A DNA stretch of 64,000 nt from Thermoanaerobaculia bacterium (GTDB lineage Bacteria > Acidobacteriota > Thermoanaerobaculia > UBA5066 > Gp7-AA6): the NCBI GenBank assembly GCA_035506175.1, contig DATJPZ010000049.1, positions 13,356 through 77,355 on the forward strand. The letters are read 5' to 3'. The notes beneath the pieces were generated by a model. That model was not told the DNA's origin, made no database searches, and was given only the letters and a program-made list of their open reading frames with translations. This document shows, in pieces, positions 16,541-62,791 of the stretch (positions within the stretch are counted from its first letter, which is position 1; every line of letters begins with the position of its first letter). Position numbers and translations under genes: made by a program.

Positions 16541-17176
16541 TCAGGCGCCCCGGGGCCAGCGCGCGATCGCCGTCTGCCCGGCCTTGAGCTTGTCGCCCGG
16601 GCCGACGAGGACTTCGGCGCCGTCCGGCACGAAGAGGTCCACGCGGGAGCCGAAGCGGATCAGGCCGATGCGCTGCCCGCGGACCAGCGTGTCGCCGACC
16701 CGCGGATAGAAGATGATCCGGCGCGCGAGGGCACCCGCGATCTGCTTGAAGGTCACGCTGCCCGAGGGGGTGACGAGCGTGATGCGGTTCTGCTCGTTTT
16801 CCGCCGACGCCTTGTCGGAGAAGGCCGCCCCCTTCTGCCCGCGGACGTACGCGTAGTCGGCCAGACGGCCGGAGGCGGGAGCGCGGTTGACGTGGCAGTT
16901 GAAAACCGACATGAAGACCGACAGGCGCCGCCGAGCTCCCGGCGGGGCCTCGGGGGCCTCGGCGACGGAGAGGACGGTGCCGTCCGCGGGCGAGATCAGG
17001 GTGTCGTCGCCGCCCTCGGGCCGCCGCTCCGGATCCCGGAAGAACTGCACGAGAAAAAGCGTGGCGGCGCCCAAAACGGCTGCCGCCAGCGGGTGGCCGG
17101 TGAGGCCGGCCACGCCCCCGGCGGCGAGCGGCGGAACGATGAAGGCCCAGCCTTCGCGGGCGATCGGAACCCTCAG
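16541..17176 (-). CDS. psd: Phosphatidylserine decarboxylase (short/archaeal-type proenzyme), probable CTG start
   Basis: FGSRVD (GS pyruvoyl cleavage site) and FFRDPER; the conserved N-terminal IAREGWAFI is encoded upstream of the first canonical start (GTG 17113); CTG at 17176 has a GAGGAG SD 8 nt upstream and a CTGA overlap with the DUF465 stop. Confidence 0.75.
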   Translation of the reverse strand: MRVPIAREGWAFIVPPLAAGGVAGLTGHPLAAAVLGAATLFLVQFFRDPERRPEGGDDTLISPADGTVLSVAEAPEAPPGARRRLSVFMSVFNCHVNRAPASGRLADYAYVRGQKGAAFSDKASAENEQNRITLVTPSGSVTFKQIAGALARRIIFYPRVGDTLVRGQRIGLIRFGSRVDLFVPDGAEVLVGPGDKLKAGQTAIARWPRGA

Positions 17177-17397
17177 CTTGGGAGCTCCTCTCGGTGATGG
17201 CGGGCGATCGCTTCCATCCGGTCCTTGAGAAGGAGCTTTTCCTTCTTCAGGCGCTTTTCTTCCATCTCCTCGTCCTCGGAAAGGCGAGGCTTCCCGGCCA
17301 GCTCGTGGAGGCGCTGTTCGTGATGCCGGTGCTCTTCGCGCAGGCGGAGAAACTCCGGGTCGGACGCGGCAATCTCGCTGTTCCCGTGCTCCATCAT
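17173..17397 (-). CDS. DUF465 (YdcH-like) small protein
   Basis: 74 aa; HRHHEQRLHEL...LSEDEEMEEKRLKKEKLLLKDRM pattern typical of DUF465; AGGAGG SD 9 nt upstream of ATG. Confidence 0.7.
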   Translation of the reverse strand: MMEHGNSEIAASDPEFLRLREEHRHHEQRLHELAGKPRLSEDEEMEEKRLKKEKLLLKDRMEAIARHHREELPS

Positions 17398-28816: not shown

Positions 28817-30730
28817 GTGGTGACGCTGATCTGCGCGGCACTGCTCGCCGTCCTGCCGCTCGCCGGCCCCTCGGGAACCTCCACGAGCGACCCGATCATG
28901 GAGAGCCGGAAGGCTTTTCTGGCGGCACGCCTCGCCGTCGTCGACGGCCGCTATCAGGAGGCTCTGGCGCTCTATCGGAAGGTCCTGACCGTCCTTCCGA
29001 ACGATCCGATCGTGCACCTCGAGTACGCCCAGCTCCTGCGGGACCTGAATGTCGCCGAGGAGGCGACGCGCCAGGCCCGGGACGCGGTGCGGCTGGACCC
29101 CAACCTGGCCGAGGCGCGGCGGCTGCTCGGGACCCTCGAACTCGCCGCGGCGGACAAAGACCCGTCGCGACTACCCGCGGCCATCGACGAGCTCGCCGCG
29201 GCCCATCGACTGGCGCCGAACGACACGGGCACGTCCGTCGCCCTGGCGCGGGCCCTGCTCGCCGGCGACCGCGCGGCCGAAGCCGCGGCGATCCTCGACG
29301 AGCTGCCGGAGCTTTCCGGGCAGCCGGCGATCGAACGCCTCACCGCGGAGGCCAAGGCCAAGAGCGGTCAGTATCGCGAGGCCGAGGAGATCTACCGCGC
29401 GCTCTGGGAGGCCGACCCGGGAGACCGCGAGATCGCGGCGGCCCTGATCGACCTGTACGAGGACGAGGACAAGCTCGACGACGCGCTCGCCGTGCTCGAA
29501 ACGCTGGCGACGCGCGACCCGGAAAATCCCGCCGTGGCCGAGCGGATCGTTCTCGACCTGGCGCGCGCGGGACGCTTCCCGGAGTCCGAGCAGAAGGCGC
29601 GGCAGCTCGTCGCGAAGCGCCCGGAGAACCGGGCCGGGCAACGCCTCCTGGCGACGGTTCTCTTCGAGCGGGACAACCCCGCCGAAGGCGAGAAGATCCT
29701 CCGCGCGCTCCTGGAAGCGGATCCGGACGACCCGACGACGCGCCGGGCGCTCGCCGCGGAGCTCGTCCGCGAGCGGCGGTTCGACGAGGCTCGAGCGATG
29801 TACGAGGACCTGATCAAGCGGACCGGCGCCGACGGCGCGAAGGGGGCCGAAGTGGCCCAGTCCGCCAGCGTCGAGCTCGGCTTCATCGCCTACCTCCAGC
29901 GCGACTACGCCGGGGCGCGGCGCATCCTGACGCCGCTCGCGCTGTCGAACGGTCAGGTCCACGACCGGGCCGCCCGCATCCTGCTCGCCGCCGATCGCGA
30001 CGGGGAGGATTTCGCGGCGGGCATGGACAGCGCGAAGGCTTTCGCCGCGGCCAGGCCGTCGGATCCGGAGTGGGAGGCAGAAACGGCGGAGTTCCGTTTC
30101 CGGCTCGGCGAGACGGCCGCCGCGGCGGCCGCGCTCGACGCCCTCGGCGCGTCCGGCCAGCTCGAGAAGATGACGGCGGCCGCCGACGCGTACGCGCGGC
30201 TGAAGAAGTACGACGCCGCCGTCCGGATCTCGCGCGAGGCGGCGGCGAAGTTCCCCGAGTCGACCGACGCTCTGTTTCGCCTGGGGTCGAGCCTCGAGCG
30301 GGCGGGCGACGGCGCGCAGGCCGAGAAGGTTTTTCTGCAGCTGCTCGAGCTTCGCCCGAACGACGCCGCGACGCTGAACTACCTCGGCTACATGTGGGCG
30401 GACCAGGGCGTGCAGCTCGAACGGGCGCGGGAGATGCTCGAAAAAGCCGTCGCGCGCGAGCCGCGCAACGCCGCCTATCTGGACTCGCTCGGCTGGGCCT
30501 ACTTCCGGCTCGGCCAGATCCAGAGCGCGGAGAAAAACCTCCGCGAGGCGTACCGGCGCGAGCCCGCGGATCCGACGATCGAGGAGCACATCGGCGACCT
30601 CGAGGCGCGGCAGGGCAACGTCGAAGGCGCGATCCGTCACTGGGAGAAGGCTCTCGAGCTCAAGCACGAGGAGCCCGATCGCGTGCGCCAGAAGCTTCAG
30701 CACGCGCGGGCGCCCGTATCCCAGCGTTGA
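28817..30730 (+). CDS. TPR-repeat protein with N-terminal signal peptide
   Basis: 637 aa; multiple TPR units (AYLDSLGWAYFRLGQ etc.); signal VVTLICAALLAVLPLAG. Confidence 0.75.
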   Translation: MVTLICAALLAVLPLAGPSGTSTSDPIMESRKAFLAARLAVVDGRYQEALALYRKVLTVLPNDPIVHLEYAQLLRDLNVAEEATRQARDAVRLDPNLAEARRLLGTLELAAADKDPSRLPAAIDELAAAHRLAPNDTGTSVALARALLAGDRAAEAAAILDELPELSGQPAIERLTAEAKAKSGQYREAEEIYRALWEADPGDREIAAALIDLYEDEDKLDDALAVLETLATRDPENPAVAERIVLDLARAGRFPESEQKARQLVAKRPENRAGQRLLATVLFERDNPAEGEKILRALLEADPDDPTTRRALAAELVRERRFDEARAMYEDLIKRTGADGAKGAEVAQSASVELGFIAYLQRDYAGARRILTPLALSNGQVHDRAARILLAADRDGEDFAAGMDSAKAFAAARPSDPEWEAETAEFRFRLGETAAAAAALDALGASGQLEKMTAAADAYARLKKYDAAVRISREAAAKFPESTDALFRLGSSLERAGDGAQAEKVFLQLLELRPNDAATLNYLGYMWADQGVQLERAREMLEKAVAREPRNAAYLDSLGWAYFRLGQIQSAEKNLREAYRREPADPTIEEHIGDLEARQGNVEGAIRHWEKALELKHEEPDRVRQKLQHARAPVSQR

Positions 30731-31401
30731 CGGCCAGACCTCTCCGTCGCGCCGCCGCCCTTTCCTCCCTGATCGCCCTCGCCGCGTGCGCGACGAACCG
30801 TCCGTCGCGTCGTTTCGAGCCCGGGAACGCGGAGCAGGCGCACGACGCGCTCGCGGCGTGGGACGCCTCGCTCGCGCGGGCGACGTCGCTGCCGGCTTCG
30901 CGTCTGCTCTACGACGCGCGCGTCTCCTCGGGCGCGACCCCGGCGGTGCCGGGAACGCTCGCCGTGACCTATGACGGCAAAGCCGTGGTCACCGCGTCGC
31001 TCACGGGCCCCTTCGGGTCGCGGATCGCCGAGTATCGCGACGGGACGATCACCGGGGAGGATCGGTCGGCGCTGATCGTCGACCCGCAGGCGCTGCGCGC
31101 CGTGCTCACCGGCGCGTGGGACGCGCCGTCGTCGCCGGCCATCGAGGGGTTCGACGCGGGACAGTGTCAATTCGGGCTCGCGGCAGAAGGCGCGCGCGTG
31201 CGCGTCGTCCTCGACCTCGCGACCGCGAACCCGGTCTCGCTCGACGTCACGGGCAAGGGCGGCCACCTCGTCGTGGACTACACGGGCGAAGCGAGCCCGT
31301 GGCCGTCCCGGCTGACGGTGCGGGAGGAGTCGACGAAACGACGGCTCGGCCTGAAGCTCCTCGCCGTCGAGCCCGCGGGGACGGGGGAGACGGCCCGATG
31401 A
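30727..31401 (+). CDS. LolB-like outer-membrane lipoprotein (putative; DUF4292-like)
   Basis: TTGA overlap with the TPR stop; lipoprotein signal LSSLIALAAC; sits immediately upstream of ispE with ATGA overlap (conserved lolB-ispE synteny). Confidence 0.45.
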   Translation: MTARPLRRAAALSSLIALAACATNRPSRRFEPGNAEQAHDALAAWDASLARATSLPASRLLYDARVSSGATPAVPGTLAVTYDGKAVVTASLTGPFGSRIAEYRDGTITGEDRSALIVDPQALRAVLTGAWDAPSSPAIEGFDAGQCQFGLAAEGARVRVVLDLATANPVSLDVTGKGGHLVVDYTGEASPWPSRLTVREESTKRRLGLKLLAVEPAGTGETAR

Positions 31402-32611: not shown

Positions 32612-32687
32612 TGGGGCGTCGCCAAACTGGTAAGGCACCGGCCTTTGGAGCCGGCATTTCTAGGTTCGAATCCTAGCGCCCCAGCCA
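32612..32687 (+). tRNA. tRNA-Gln (anticodon UUG)
   Basis: Cloverleaf folded by hand: acceptor UGGGGCG/CGCCCCA, anticodon stem CCGGC/GCCGG, loop CUUUGGA, T-arm CTAGG-TTCGAAT-CCTAG, encoded CCA. Confidence 0.85.
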
Positions 32688-34628: not shown

Positions 34629-35330
34629 ATGAAGACCATCGAACTTTCGGTCGAGAAGCGCTCGACCATCGGCAAGAACGAGGCCCGCCGCGAGCGGGCC
34701 GCCGGCCGCATTCCGGCCGTGGTGTACGGCGCCGGCAAGCCCAACGTGCCCATCTCGGTGGACCGCAAGGCCCTGTCGGACGTGTTCCGCGAGGGCGCCG
34801 GGGAAAACGCGATCTTCCTGTTGAAGCTCTCCGGCTCGGACCAGAGCCGGCACGCGATGATCCGGGAGATGCAGCGGGATCCGGTGTCGCGCAGGCCGCT
34901 CCACATCGACTTCGTCCGCGTCCTGATGGACGTCAAGATCACGGTCAAGGTGCCGATCGAGGTCCTCGGCGTCGCGCGCGGCGTCAAGACGGACGGCGGC
35001 ATCCTGGACGTCGTCACCCGCGAGGTCGAGATCGAGTGTCTGCCCGGGAACATCCCGGCGCACCTGGGCGTGGACGTGGCCGACCTCGGGATCGGCGACG
35101 CCATCCGCGTCTCCCAGGTCACGGCCCCGGAGGGCGTGCGCATCGTCGACAACCCGGAGAAGGTCGTCGTCCACGTCGCGCATCCGACGCGCGAAGAGGA
35201 GCCGGTCGCCGCCGCGGAGGGCGCCGCCGAGCCCGCAGAGCCCGAAGTGCTCAAGAAGGGCAAGGCCGTCTCCGAGGAAGAGGGCGCCGAGGAGAAGGGC
35301 GAGAAGAAGGAGAAGGAAAAGGAGAAGTAG
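34629..35330 (+). CDS. rplY: 50S ribosomal protein L25 / general stress protein Ctc
   Basis: MKTIELSVEKR...IPAVVYG L25 N-domain, lysine/glutamate-rich C-tail; start could also be GTG 34620. Confidence 0.85.
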   Translation: MKTIELSVEKRSTIGKNEARRERAAGRIPAVVYGAGKPNVPISVDRKALSDVFREGAGENAIFLLKLSGSDQSRHAMIREMQRDPVSRRPLHIDFVRVLMDVKITVKVPIEVLGVARGVKTDGGILDVVTREVEIECLPGNIPAHLGVDVADLGIGDAIRVSQVTAPEGVRIVDNPEKVVVHVAHPTREEEPVAAAEGAAEPAEPEVLKKGKAVSEEEGAEEKGEKKEKEKEK

Positions 35331-35333
35331 CCT

Positions 35334-35930
35334 CTGCGCGTCATCGTCGGCCTGGGCAACCCCGGGGACGATTACGCGGAGACCCGTCACAACGCCGGGT
35401 TCCGCGTGGTCGAGGCGCTGGCGGCGGAGGAAGGAATCCGGATCCGCTCGCGCGAGTGTTCGTCGAGGGTGGGCCGGGGAAGGGTCGGCGGGGAACCGGT
35501 GCTGCTCGCCCTTCCGCAGACGTACATGAACGCCTCCGGCGAGGCCGTTTCGGCTCTTTGCCAGAAATACAGCGTCGAACCCACGGAGCTCTGCGTCGTC
35601 GTCGACGACATCGATCTCCCGGTCGGGGCGCTGCGCCTGCGGGCGCGCGGCTCGGCGGGAGGGCAGAAGGGCCTGAAGTCGATCATCGCGCATCTCGGGA
35701 CGACGGAGTTTCCGAGGCTGCGCGTCGGGATCCGCGGCGAGCGCTACTCGCGCGACCGCGACCTGGCCGACTACGTGCTGGAGCCGGTGGCGAAGGCCGA
35801 ACGCGAAGCCTTCGCCGACAGTGTCGGGAGAGCCGCCGAGGCGGTGCGGCTGTGGGTCACGCAAGGAATCGACGCCGCGATGCGGCGAGCGAACGTTTCC
35901 CCCTCTCCGGGCGATCACGACCCGGATTGA
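35334..35930 (+). CDS. pth: Peptidyl-tRNA hydrolase, probable CTG start
   Basis: VIVGLGNPG...ETRHNAGF catalytic N-terminus lies upstream of the first canonical start (GTG 35406); CTG 35334 is 3 nt after the rplY TAG with an AAGGAG SD 9 nt upstream. Confidence 0.8.
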   Translation: MRVIVGLGNPGDDYAETRHNAGFRVVEALAAEEGIRIRSRECSSRVGRGRVGGEPVLLALPQTYMNASGEAVSALCQKYSVEPTELCVVVDDIDLPVGALRLRARGSAGGQKGLKSIIAHLGTTEFPRLRVGIRGERYSRDRDLADYVLEPVAKAEREAFADSVGRAAEAVRLWVTQGIDAAMRRANVSPSPGDHDPD

Positions 35931-52108: not shown

Positions 52109-52177
52109 TTCATCGCCGAGCCCGCGTCCCCTCCGGCCCTCCTGAGTCTGCGCGACCCGGTCTCGAGGATTCCCGGC

Positions 52178-54136
52178 GTGGGCCCCGCGCGCGCCGAGAA
52201 GCTCGCGGCCGAGGGATTCCGGACGATCGGCGACTTCCTGCTCGCGTTGCCGTTCCGGTACGAGGACCGCCGGCGCTTCGCGACGATCGCCAGCCTCGAA
52301 TGGGACCGTCCGGCGACGGTCCTCGTGACCTTCCGGGGCGTGCGGTCGGTGCGGATGCGCCGCGGGCTGCTGCGCGTCGAGGCGCTCGCCGACGACGGCA
52401 CCGGGGCGGTCCGCGTCGTCTGGCACAACCGGTATCCATCCTTCGCGAAGGCGCTCGACGGCGCGCGGGCCGCGCTCTACGGCGCTCCGACGGCGTCGTC
52501 CAGGGGCGAGATGCGGATCGAGAACCCCGAGACCGAGTTCATCGCGGCGGGCGAGGAGGCGGACCCCGTCCACTCGGGGCGCGTCGTCGGCGTCTACCAT
52601 CGGGCGGCCGACGTCGGTACACGGCTCTGGCGCAGCCTCGTGCGGAGAACGCTCGACCGCCTGAGCCCGGGCTTCGCCAGCGCGGCGGCCGCCGCTCCCG
52701 CAATCCGCTCGGCGCTCGAGGAGGCGCACTTCCCGTCCTCGGAAGAGGCGGCGGGGGCCGCCCGGCGGCTGCTGGCGCAGGAGGAGCTCCTCGTCCTGGC
52801 CTCCGGCATCGAGGAGAAGCGGGCGCGCCTCCATGCGCGCCGCGGGATCCGGCTCGAAGCCAGCGACGCGTTGCGCCAGCGCACGCGCGAGGCCCTGCCG
52901 TTTTCGCTCACGGGCGCCCAGCGGCGCGCCGTGCGCGAGATCGCGGCCGACCTCGCCTCGGGACGCGCCATGGCCCGGCTCCTCCAGGGCGACGTCGGGT
53001 CGGGCAAGACGGTCGTGGCGGGACTCGCCCTGATGCTGGCCGCGGGCAACCGCGTCCAGGGGGCGCTCATGGCGCCCACCGAGATCCTCGCCGAGCAGCA
53101 CGCCGAGAGCCTCGCGTCGTGGCTGACCGGGGCCGGCGTGCGCCTGGCACTCCTGACCGGGCGCGTGCGCGGCGCCGCGCGCCGCCGCCTGCTCGAGGAG
53201 CTCGCCTCGGGACGAATCGACGTCCTCGTCGGCACGCACGCGCTCGCGGAGGCGCCGGTGACCTTCCGGCGGCTCGGCCTCGTGGTCGTGGACGAGCAGC
53301 ACCGCTTCGGCGTGGCGCACCGCGCGCGCCTGTTCCGGAAGGGCGACGCGCCCCACGTCCTCGTCATGACCGCGACGCCGATTCCCCGGTCCCTCGCGTG
53401 GGCGATCTACGGCGAGCTCGACGTCTCCGTCCTCGACGAAAAGCCCCCCGGGCGCGGCGAGATCGTCACGCGGGTGCGCGACGAGGAAGGGCGGGCGAAG
53501 GTCTACGCGTTCGCCGCCGAGCGGGTCGCGGCCGGCGAGCGGGTTTACGTCGTCGTCCCGGCAATCGAGGAGGGGGAACGCGAGGTGGCGGCCACGCGCG
53601 CGACGGCGCGGCGGCTCGCGGAGGCCCTCCCCGGCGTCCGCGTCGAGGTTCTCCACGGCCGGATGCCGGCGCCCGACCGCACCACCGTGCTGCGGGACTT
53701 CGCCAGCGGCCGCGCCCCGGTCCTCGTGTCGACGACGGTCGTCGAGGTCGGGGTGGACGTGCCCGAGGCGACGCTCATGGTCGTCGAAAACGCCGAGGTG
53801 TTCGGGCTCGCCCAGCTCCACCAGCTCCGCGGCCGCGTCGGCCGGAGCACGCGCGCATCCTGGTGCGCGCTGATCGCGGGGCCCGGGGCGACGCCGGAGG
53901 CCCGCCAGCGCCTCGCCGTCCTCGAGCAGACGTCGGACGGCTTCGCGATCGCCGAGCGCGACCTCGAGGCGCGAGGTCCGGGCGACCTGCTCGGCAGCCG
54001 CCAGTCCGGCCTGCCGGCAATGCGCGTGGCGGATCCCGTTCGGGACCTCGCGGCCCTCGGGGAGGCGCGGCGGCGGGTGGCGGCCCTTCGCGAGGCGGGA
54101 CAGGCGGTGCGGAGCGACCTGTTCGGGTATCCGTAG
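52178..54136 (+). CDS. recG: ATP-dependent DNA helicase RecG
   Basis: GVGPARAEKLAAEGFRTIGDFLLALPFRYEDR wedge region, Walker A GDVGSGKT, DEQHRFGV, QLRGRVGR; GTG start with AGGA 7 nt upstream. Confidence 0.92.
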   Translation: MGPARAEKLAAEGFRTIGDFLLALPFRYEDRRRFATIASLEWDRPATVLVTFRGVRSVRMRRGLLRVEALADDGTGAVRVVWHNRYPSFAKALDGARAALYGAPTASSRGEMRIENPETEFIAAGEEADPVHSGRVVGVYHRAADVGTRLWRSLVRRTLDRLSPGFASAAAAAPAIRSALEEAHFPSSEEAAGAARRLLAQEELLVLASGIEEKRARLHARRGIRLEASDALRQRTREALPFSLTGAQRRAVREIAADLASGRAMARLLQGDVGSGKTVVAGLALMLAAGNRVQGALMAPTEILAEQHAESLASWLTGAGVRLALLTGRVRGAARRRLLEELASGRIDVLVGTHALAEAPVTFRRLGLVVVDEQHRFGVAHRARLFRKGDAPHVLVMTATPIPRSLAWAIYGELDVSVLDEKPPGRGEIVTRVRDEEGRAKVYAFAAERVAAGERVYVVVPAIEEGEREVAATRATARRLAEALPGVRVEVLHGRMPAPDRTTVLRDFASGRAPVLVSTTVVEVGVDVPEATLMVVENAEVFGLAQLHQLRGRVGRSTRASWCALIAGPGATPEARQRLAVLEQTSDGFAIAERDLEARGPGDLLGSRQSGLPAMRVADPVRDLAALGEARRRVAALREAGQAVRSDLFGYP

Positions 54137-61314: not shown

Positions 61315-62040
61315 ATGAGCGAGACCGAACCCGGAACCGGCGCCGTCGCGGTGGCCGAGAAGGAAGAGCGCCCCCCGCGCGAGACCTCGGGCGCCCGGAT
61401 CCTCGGCGCGGTCGAGGCGGTGCTCTTCTCGTCGCCGCGGCCGGTCCGCGAAAAGGACCTCGGGGAGCTGCTCGACGCGACGCCGGCGGCCGTCTCGGAG
61501 GCGCTCTCGATGCTGGGAACTCGCACCGACGGGGAAGACCGCGGCATCCGCCTCGAGAAGGTCGCCGGCGGCTGGCGCTTCGTGACGCGCCCGGAGTTCG
61601 ACGGGCTCCTGCGGCGGTTCCACGAAGTCACCGAGCGGAGCCGCCTGTCCCTCGCCGCCCTCGAGACGCTCGCCATCATCGCCTACCGCCAGCCGATCAC
61701 GCTGCCCGAAATCCAGGAGATCCGCGGCGTCAACTCCTCGAGCGTGCTGAAGACGCTGTTCGAGAAGAAGCTGATCACGACGGCCGGGAAGAAGGCCGTG
61801 GTGGGTTCCCCGTTTTTCTACCGCACGACGCCCGACTTCCTGATGCGCTTCGGGTTGAACGAGCTCGACGAGCTGCCGCGCCCCGAGGATCTCGATGCGG
61901 ACCTCGCGTCGACGCTGGAGGCGCGGGAGATTGCGGCGCCGACGGCCGCGGCGCCCTCCATCCACGTCGAGGTCGAGACGGGCGAGGACGCGCTCGACGA
62001 CGCGGACGCGCCGGGGCCCGAACCCGACGCGGAGGTCTGA
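61315..62040 (+). CDS. scpB: Segregation and condensation protein B
   Basis: ILGAVEAVLFSSPRPV...ETLAIIAYRQPITLPEIQEIRGV winged-helix repeats. Confidence 0.88.
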   Translation: MSETEPGTGAVAVAEKEERPPRETSGARILGAVEAVLFSSPRPVREKDLGELLDATPAAVSEALSMLGTRTDGEDRGIRLEKVAGGWRFVTRPEFDGLLRRFHEVTERSRLSLAALETLAIIAYRQPITLPEIQEIRGVNSSSVLKTLFEKKLITTAGKKAVVGSPFFYRTTPDFLMRFGLNELDELPRPEDLDADLASTLEAREIAAPTAAAPSIHVEVETGEDALDDADAPGPEPDAEV

Positions 62041-62041
62041 C

Positions 62042-62791
62042 CTGGCGCTCGTCCGCATCCAGAAAATCATCGCGTCGAGCGGCCTCGCCTCCCGCCGCGA
62101 AGCCGAGGAGTGGATCCGGCAAGGGCGGGTGCGCGTCAACGGCAAGCTCGCGAGCCTCGGCGACCGCGCCGACCCGGTCGCCGACTCGATCAAGGTCGAC
62201 GACCGCCGCGTCCGCGCCGCCTCGGGACCGCGGACGTACCTTCTCCTGAACAAGCCGAAAGGCTACGTCACGACGGTGAGCGATCCCGAGGGCCGCGACA
62301 CGGTGCTGCAGCTCCTGCCCGGGCGCCTGCGCCGGACGGTGAAGCCGGTCGGCCGCCTCGACGTGCAGACGGAGGGCCTGCTCCTCCTGACGGACGACGG
62401 CGACCTCGCGCGGCTCGTGACGCATCCGTCGACGGGTTGCCCCAAGGAGTACCTCGTGAAGGTCTCCGGCGAGCCGACGCCCGCGCAGCTCGAAAAGCTG
62501 CGGCGCGGCGTTTTTCTCGACGGCGAGCGGACGCGGCCCTGCGACATCGACCGCGTGTCGGGCACGCCGCGCCGCGAGGGGCAGGAAGGCAACACGTGGC
62601 TTCGGGTCACGCTCCGCGAGGGCCGAAGCCGGCAACTCCGCCGGATGTTCGCGGCGGTCGGCCACCCGGTGTCCAAGCTCCGCCGCGTCGCGATCGGGCC
62701 GGTGCGCGACGAGACCCTGTCGCCCGGGGCGAGCCGGCTCCTGAGCGCCGCCGAAGTCGCCGCCCTGAAGCGGCTCGGAAAACCGCAGTGA
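62042..62791 (+). CDS. rluB: 23S rRNA pseudouridine synthase (RluB/RsuA family), probable CTG start
   Basis: S4 domain (RIQKIIASSGLASRREAEEWIRQGRVRVNGK) plus catalytic GRLDVQTEGLLLLTDDG; no ATG/GTG/TTG between the scpB stop and the S4 domain except TTG 61931 deep inside scpB; CTG 62042 has a GGAGGT SD 5 nt upstream. Confidence 0.75.
   Translation: MALVRIQKIIASSGLASRREAEEWIRQGRVRVNGKLASLGDRADPVADSIKVDDRRVRAASGPRTYLLLNKPKGYVTTVSDPEGRDTVLQLLPGRLRRTVKPVGRLDVQTEGLLLLTDDGDLARLVTHPSTGCPKEYLVKVSGEPTPAQLEKLRRGVFLDGERTRPCDIDRVSGTPRREGQEGNTWLRVTLREGRSRQLRRMFAAVGHPVSKLRRVAIGPVRDETLSPGASRLLSAAEVAALKRLGKPQ

Follow-up and report, generated by a model that had tools for sequence, protein, structure and literature searches.

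The locus described here raises the question of which codon starts the translation of an rluB-like pseudouridine synthase gene that follows directly on scpB. It lies in a stretch of 64,000 nucleotides (the window; contig DATJPZ010000049.1, positions 13,356 to 77,355, of the soil Thermoanaerobaculia bacterium assembly GCA_035506175.1) with a G+C content of 71.5%, whose closest relatives are Thermoanaerobaculia metagenome-assembled genomes (MAGs) of the Acidobacteriota. CTG is an allowed start codon in translation table 11, and conservation in relatives together with coding potential supports a CTG at 62042..62044 (+ strand) as the likely true initiation codon. We estimate a probability of about three in four that the gene is translated from CUG 62042 by coupled termination-reinitiation behind scpB, anchored by a Shine-Dalgarno (SD) sequence.

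The arrangement of the junction can be read directly from the sequence and is as the first-pass annotation had described it. The scpB gene (61315..62040, + strand), coding for SMC-ScpAB subunit B, was identified by PF04079 (E=1.4e-51, residues 32-189) and TIGR00281 (126 bits versus a cutoff of 89). The C-terminal tail of ScpB is acidic and poorly conserved, and its final codons hold the SD of the rluB-like gene, GGAGGT (62031..62036, + strand). A spacer of 5 nt, CTGAC (62037-62041), separates this SD from the CTG and includes the scpB stop TGA (62038..62040, + strand), which is invariant in relatives and ends 1 nt before the CTG. Started at this codon, the coding sequence of the RluB/RsuA-family pseudouridine synthase (62042..62791, + strand) comprises 249 aa and reads L-ALVRIQKIIASSGLASRREAEEWIRQGRVRVNGK. 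The S4 RNA-binding domain (62051..62167, + strand; PF01479, E=8.8e-13, residues 53-91 of the 298-aa ORF, profile positions 1-41) has its profile position 1 on the Val codon 62051, three codons after the CTG, in agreement with the earlier claim that S4 starts right after the scpB TGA. In the NCBIfam RluB model, position 4 aligns to Arg 62054. With a start at the CTG, the N-terminus therefore agrees with the family model to within one residue.

To follow the junction through related genomes, we recovered it from ten related contigs with 78-95% protein identity; among these, L001-L003 are GTDB species representatives and L085, L086, L087, L168, L169 and L170 are public assemblies. The pattern C-GGAGG-nn-TGA-n(n)-CTG is kept in all ten, and the sequence upstream of it is highly variable and contains indels. 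Six contigs have the layout cGGAGG-nn-TGA-n-CTG, like the window, and three have GGAGGA-CTGA-nn-CTG. In an alignment of the window with seven relatives, the C-GGAGG..TGA..CTG block is invariant, and the 50 nt before it, where the acidic ScpB tail is encoded, show high variability and gaps. The GGAGG core is unchanged in 8/8 aligned sequences and in three further contigs. Seven of the ten relatives (L002, L003, L085, L086, L087, L168 and L170) have no ATG, GTG or TTG in the stop-bounded upstream frame (156-402 nt) up to S4, and their next canonical start is a GTG at +87 to +111, inside S4. Directly downstream of the CTG, codon changes are synonymous (Ala GCG/GCT/GCC, Val GTC/GTT, Arg CGC/CGA/CGG), and in the two codons preceding it they are non-synonymous, with S, N, T, P or R at -2. 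In the subgroup of the window, the -2 codon is TCT, AAT, ACT, AGT, CCT or CGT. None of these can initiate, which leaves CTG 62042 as the only candidate there. In more distant relatives the codon homologous to CTG 62042 is TTG (L004, L006) or ATG (L007, L008, L010), so that the position is conserved where orthologues use a canonical start, with the caveat that one subgroup starts two codons upstream. Among 79 Acidobacteriota species representatives, a canonical start is missing only in the three closest (L001-L003); the remaining ones have a canonical start within 15 codons or a longer N-terminal extension begun further upstream, and one locus is cut by a contig end.

An SD at functional spacing before a CTG is by itself not rare, since 15 of 750 internal in-frame CTG codons (2%) carry a strong 5-mer SD 4-9 nt upstream. 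The motif alone is thus weak evidence, and it is the position-specific conservation in relatives that goes beyond chance. We regard these comparative data as decisive for the predicted placement of the start.

Coding potential gives a matching boundary. We trained a codon-usage log-odds model on 18 long ORFs from the window, and by this model coding potential in the rluB frame has its 5′ edge at 62039, a single codon ahead of the CTG. Before 62039 this frame has negative log-odds, and up to 62038 the coding frame is that of scpB. This bears on a start at a canonical codon within scpB, which would add an Arg-rich leader of 37-49 residues translated from the +1 frame of the scpB acidic tail. TTG 61931 (61931..61933, + strand) had earlier been taken for the only canonical in-frame start, which is incorrect: a second in-frame codon, ATG 61895 (61895..61897, + strand), lies 147 nt upstream of the CTG and is itself preceded by GAGGA at 5 nt. 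Both codons are open to the CTG without a stop between, GGAGG lies 9 nt before the TTG, and some other Acidobacteriota RluB proteins do have real basic N-terminal extensions. Extended proteins have also been called in relatives (P0125-P0127, P0131, P0134, P0170) where an upstream ATG or GTG occurs by chance. However, seven close relatives have no canonical start in this open frame, and in the window the two upstream codons are not conserved ones. The leaders of the extended calls are unrelated Arg/Thr-rich strings, wholly different in length and sequence, that converge on ...RR[STV][DE]-L-ALVRIQK. Added to this, the coding log-odds prefer the scpB frame and the alignment before the SD is variable and gapped. 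We judge ATG 61895 and TTG 61931 to be non-functional as starts and consider initiation there quite unlikely. As a separate observation, the +1 frame of the acidic ScpB tail is open and Arg/Thr-rich in the window (61895-62040) and over 150-400 nt in relatives too.

The locus is already public. The window is 100% protein-identical to a JGI metagenome contig (L090, Ga0335069_10002225, 30,119 bp) and to a 155-kb NCBI ‘MAG TPA Thermoanaerobaculia’ contig (HTY412xx-413xx proteins), and its start calls are of mixed quality. The comparison with L090 covered 16541-17176 and 35334-35930. On the NCBI contig the rluB-like gene is recorded as HTY41322.1, a protein of 244 aa that begins MQKIIASSG and implies a start at ATC 62057 (62057..62059, + strand), a non-canonical codon five codons after the CTG. 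Besides this exact deposited product for an identical protein, it can be said for the ATC that weak near-cognate initiation at this codon has been documented in E. coli (bioRxiv 10.1101/063800) and that the loss of five residues costs only the first one or two S4 profile positions. On the other hand, the sole SD (GGAGG, 62031-35) lies 20-21 nt upstream of it and no SD-like motif is found in the 20 nt before it. The four codons from the CTG to the ATC vary synonymously in the third position and include an Arg that is strictly conserved, at S4 profile position 2. L086, which has no canonical start, carries GTT at this codon. No relative with a canonical start begins at the ATC codon; all of them start either at the CTG position or upstream of it. 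Because of the SD distance, the GTT in L086, the coding behaviour upstream and the absence of any canonical-start relative beginning there, we judge the ATC call to be wrong; a start at this codon is unlikely, and the NCBI record appears to be five codons off.

A different position is given by Prodigal-type calls. For the identical or near-identical protein (P0122-P0124, 99-100% identity) these start at GTG 62129 (62129..62131, + strand) and give products of 220 aa with a truncated S4 and no S4 Pfam match. Many related clusters (78-94% identity) are shortened likewise, to 220, 214 or 212 aa, which indicates that the clade with the CTG is broad. The 249-aa CTG-start product is absent from a collection of 15 billion proteins. 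In favour of the GTG, it is the first canonical start downstream, and the JGI, ENA and Logan data have it as the start called for the present sequence and for many related ones. Against a 220-aa enzyme without the first S4 helix stands the strong conservation of the 29 codons upstream, which are preserved as protein across all relatives and form S4. There is no SD before the GTG either, and the shortened products lose the Pfam match. A true start at this codon is in our judgement very improbable.

A further explanation keeps the conserved GGAGG and gives it another role. The rluB-like frame is +1 relative to scpB, and GGAGG precedes UGA-C, a poor termination context as in prfB, so that a ScpB-RluB fusion could be made by a prfB-like +1 frameshift at the UGA with GGAGG as the stimulator. 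The motif of the prfB frameshift reads YTT_TRA_C (PMC3711429). At the scpB-rluB junction the last sense codon varies (GTC, GAA, GAC, GAG, GCC, GCG) and none of these codons re-pairs in the +1 frame, so no slippery codon is present. In prfB the SD lies 3 nt upstream, but here it overlaps the P-site codon. Relatives also differ in phase: in L001, L087, L169 and L084 the two frames stand in opposite phase, with an NTGA overlap. Two other genes of the window with CTG starts, pth and a phosphatidylserine decarboxylase gene, would each require a different recoding, and the stop that precedes pth is TAG in some cases and TAA in others. The likeness to prfB is thus one of resemblance only, and we consider a frameshift extremely improbable.

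The product of the rluB-like gene has the features of the RluB/RsuA family. It scores 163.8 bits with TIGR00093 (cutoff 109.3) and combines an N-terminal S4 domain with a PseudoU_synth_2 catalytic domain (62237..62656, + strand; PF00849, residues 115-254, E=1.4e-22) that contains the conserved Asp in the GRLD catalytic motif. As in this family, the N-terminus M-x-x-(R/K)-(I/L)-Q-K would enter S4 directly, and the gene sits downstream of scpA-scpB. Unlike RluB proper, the protein does not reach the cutoff of the RluB equivalog NF007976 (23S rRNA psi2605 synthase), with 149.3 bits versus 290. It is therefore best called RluB-like, and a target position in rRNA is not assigned.

The first-pass annotation had counted this gene as the third in the window with a CTG-only start, and this count is confirmed. 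One of the others is pth, the peptidyl-tRNA hydrolase gene (35334..35930, + strand), in which PF01195 profile position 1 falls on residue 3 of the product started at CTG 35334. Its upstream neighbour is rplY/ctc, the L25/Ctc gene (34629-35330, + strand), whose in-frame TAG (35328-30) lies one codon before the CTG; AGGAG (35320-35324) is found 9 nt upstream of the CTG. A start at GTG 35406, the canonical codon that comes next, would drop the GLGNPG...His motif. In a protein search, dozens of homologous clusters (77-87% identical) were called with 174-175 aa, all cut at that GTG or ATG, and these public homologues are 24 residues too short and without the catalytic N-terminus; a CTG start is implied for them too. 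The junction DNA in L081-L083 reads AAGGAGAAG-TAG/TAA-CCT/TCT-CTG, with the CTG conserved in all three. Read-through of the stop codon was rejected for pth, as both TAG and TAA occur as the stop and the codon that separates it from the CTG shows non-synonymous variation. In these three contigs, uvrB (L082, L083) is split into several called genes and the L25/Ctc gene (L081, L083) is split or truncated, probably by assembly indel errors; L081-L083 are thus safe for substitution-level comparison and unsafe for frame analysis.

The other gene encodes a short phosphatidylserine decarboxylase (16541..17176, - strand; PF02666, E=7.9e-38) with CTG 17176 as its start. The stop of the preceding DUF465 gene (17173-17397, - strand) overlaps this start as CTGA. 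AGGAG (17185-17189) lies 8 nt upstream of the CTG, and no canonical start is present in the 225-nt open frame upstream. The CTGA is kept in 28 of 31 metagenomic relatives (63-100% identity), and the three most distant ones (54-58%) have GTGA. The pairing of DUF465 and decarboxylase genes is itself conserved along with the CTGA in these 28 relatives, down to 63% identity. The NCBI records of the identical contig match the CTG-start products of both genes exactly (HTY41297.1, pth, 198 aa; HTY41277.1, decarboxylase, 211 aa), and hence the two genes are already annotated as CTG starts.

Gene callers that are limited to ATG, GTG and TTG shorten all three proteins, to 220 aa (RluB-like), 174 aa (Pth) and 190 aa (decarboxylase). 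The RluB-like protein thereby loses its S4 helix, Pth its catalytic N-terminus with GLGNPG...His, and the decarboxylase its N-terminus. The shortened forms populate public protein databases in dozens of related clusters.

The three CTG starts share their surroundings. A strong 5-mer SD 4-9 nt upstream is found at 3/3 CTG starts versus 10/55 canonical starts in the window (Fisher p about 0.009), and a distance of -4 to +3 nt from an upstream stop on the same strand at 3/3 CTG starts versus 19/57 genes overall (p about 0.04). With a strong SD and an adjoining or overlapping upstream stop, they therefore fit SD-assisted, translationally coupled initiation. For the rluB-like gene, stop and start lie close together on one mRNA, with 1 nt between TGA and CTG. 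The gene is the fourth cistron of a trpS-scpA-scpB-rluB-cmk operon in which all junctions are between -4 and +7 nt. The GTG start of cmk (62788..62790, + strand; PF02224) overlaps the rluB stop as GTGA, which shows that the operon is tightly coupled throughout.

Initiation at the CUG by ribosomes that have just terminated upstream, anchored by the SD, is the most economical model for these data. A ribosome completing scpB would terminate at UGA 62038-40, and the invariant GGAGG (62031-35) would then pair with the anti-SD of the 16S rRNA, placing the CUG, 5-6 nt downstream, into the P site. The initiator fMet-tRNA would decode the CUG through a first-position mismatch and so give M-ALVRIQK.... 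Such a U36-C mismatch of the initiator tRNA on CUG is structurally possible but weak (PMC11497404). The weakness of the codon might be offset by the strong SD and by the high local supply of ribosomes at a termination-reinitiation junction. It also probably holds this low-abundance enzyme well under the level of the upstream product, and a low output would be sensible where Pth follows ribosomal protein L25 and where catalytic enzymes follow structural partners. The same arrangement, a strong SD and a CUG that starts at or within 3 nt of the upstream stop, is present in pth and in the gene for the short phosphatidylserine decarboxylase. What the data themselves show is the conserved CTG and SD, relatives that have no alternative start, and a coding signature running from the putative CTG start onwards; from this we infer the use of fMet-tRNA, a dependence on scpB translation and a role in tuning expression.

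Several findings weigh against CTG 62042 as the start. The case for it is built from sequence. ATG 61895 and TTG 61931 are in frame here, each near an SD-like motif, and some initiation may occur at one or the other in this genome. In the closest relatives with a canonical start, this start lies two codons upstream of the Leu that is homologous to CTG 62042 and overlaps the scpB stop as NTGA (ATG in L084/P0130, P0137, P0139 and P0156; GTG in P0128; TTG in P0132). Because these relatives keep the Leu internally, the conservation of the CTG could partly mirror a conserved Leu. A second CTG, placed at -2 in a CTGA overlap, is an equally good candidate in L001, L087 and L169; in this subgroup the first CTG may be the start. 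The genomes of both subgroups, with a CTG of the 62042 type or of the CTGA type, would need a CUG start either way. It should also be considered that the NCBI record for the gene uses ATC 62057 and that the coupling statistics come from three genes. No conserved RNA structure was found at the scpB-rluB junction that would support a coupling of the unmasking type. A hairpin masking the SD and the CUG was considered and is not supported (Alifold -6.3 kcal/mol with a positive covariation term; single-sequence z-score -1.5).

Both CUG initiation, a known but rare mechanism, and translational coupling are established. In E. coli K-12, CUG initiation has been demonstrated experimentally for hda and yfjD, the two verified CTG starts, which were confirmed by start-codon mutagenesis (PMC3531124). 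In reporters, CUG initiates at roughly 1-2% of AUG (bioRxiv 10.1101/063800). Like these two genes, the rluB-like gene is a chromosomal housekeeping gene with a conserved N-terminus that can be reached solely from a CTG, and its start is likewise deduced from sequence conservation and a suitable ribosome-binding site. In contrast to the two verified cases in the whole genome of E. coli, there are three in 64 kb (about 57 genes) here, predicted from sequence, each of them conserved across many related genomes and each at a stop-start junction. The junctions resemble those of termination-reinitiation coupling (for example trpB-trpA; survey in PMC10666635) in having both genes on the same strand, a stop-start distance of -4 to +3 nt and an SD within the end of the upstream gene. 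Whereas described coupling junctions have ATG, GTG or TTG, the window also uses C as the first base, as CTGA (decarboxylase), TGA-C-CTG (rluB) and TAG-CCT-CTG (pth). The rluB case would accordingly be a well-supported further CUG-initiated gene and a correction to public calls. Less ordinary are the density of the CTG starts, the depth of their conservation and their consistent placement at stop-start junctions, including the CTGA overlap.

These cases bear on the proposal of the first-pass annotation that CUG initiation is systematic. By an approximate automated assignment, the about 57 genes of the window start with about 26 ATG, 20 GTG, 8 TTG and 3 CTG. In 79 model bacterial genome and plasmid sequences, 81.8% of the annotated starts are ATG, 13.8% GTG and 4.35% TTG (bioRxiv 10.1101/063800), and all other start codons therefore make up about 0.05%. 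A CTG start in 3 of 57 genes is unusual, within a scope of three genes in 64 kb. The part of the proposal that stands is that CTG use is recurrent, with three conserved genes, and this supports, within the limits of the window, a pattern other than isolated error; a systematic use is shown for three genes in these 64 kb. Overall, the earlier observation is partly confirmed and its interpretation is supported. CTG seems to be in regular use as a start codon in this lineage. As a tentative generalization, which we hold to be possible but somewhat less likely than its opposite, CUG would be a regular fourth start codon in the Thermoanaerobaculia lineage, used at the percent level genome-wide, preferentially at termination-reinitiation junctions (NTGA, N being any base), and stable over long evolutionary time.

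Four-base NTGA overlaps were also surveyed in the window with the same approximate starts. There are 12, of which 5 are GTGA, 3 TTGA, 3 ATGA and 1 CTGA, so only 3 of the 12 overlapped starts are ATG. The sites include 3961, 21249, 24380, 30727, 31398, 32255, 37667, 45200, 48766, 60531, 62788 and 17176. Two further genes were considered as startless and rejected. For recG (52109-54136), GTG 52178 is plausible and fits the 653-660 aa found in relatives; for the ORF 30727-31401, TTG 30727 is plausible, in a TTGA overlap. The recG orthologue of L084 (L084:153-2096) shows coding potential about 90 nt upstream of its first canonical start and is called about 40 aa shorter than in other relatives, which could reflect another non-canonical start or an assembly error. 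No further CTG-only genes were found in about 140 kb of relatives’ loci (20-kb loci), which are mostly orthologous to the window; the additional flags raised there were rejected as assembly frameshifts, for example in the split uvrB. A search of 167 loci did not reveal an initiator tRNA gene, and the sole tRNA in the window is tRNA-Gln (anticodon TTG; 32612-32687, + strand). The literature searches turned up no account of an elevated use of CTG starts in Thermoanaerobaculia or Acidobacteria. One literature match on reinitiation at non-canonical codons concerns eukaryotes and is not applicable.

If CUG were a regular start codon in this lineage, its use at the percent level would stand against 0.05% or less in the annotations of model genomes. 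Such use would imply that the discrimination of start codons has become relaxed specifically in this lineage, through IF3, for instance, or the anticodon stem of the initiator tRNA or the P-site contacts of the 16S rRNA; alternatively, it would reflect a general rule that reinitiating ribosomes accept CUG. Should it hold genome-wide, these organisms would offer a natural system for studying start-codon discrimination in reinitiation. The three deeply conserved CUG starts suggest that CUG is tolerated, and perhaps selected for low output, where upstream translation delivers the ribosomes, and that the lineage may use CUG far more often than model bacteria do.

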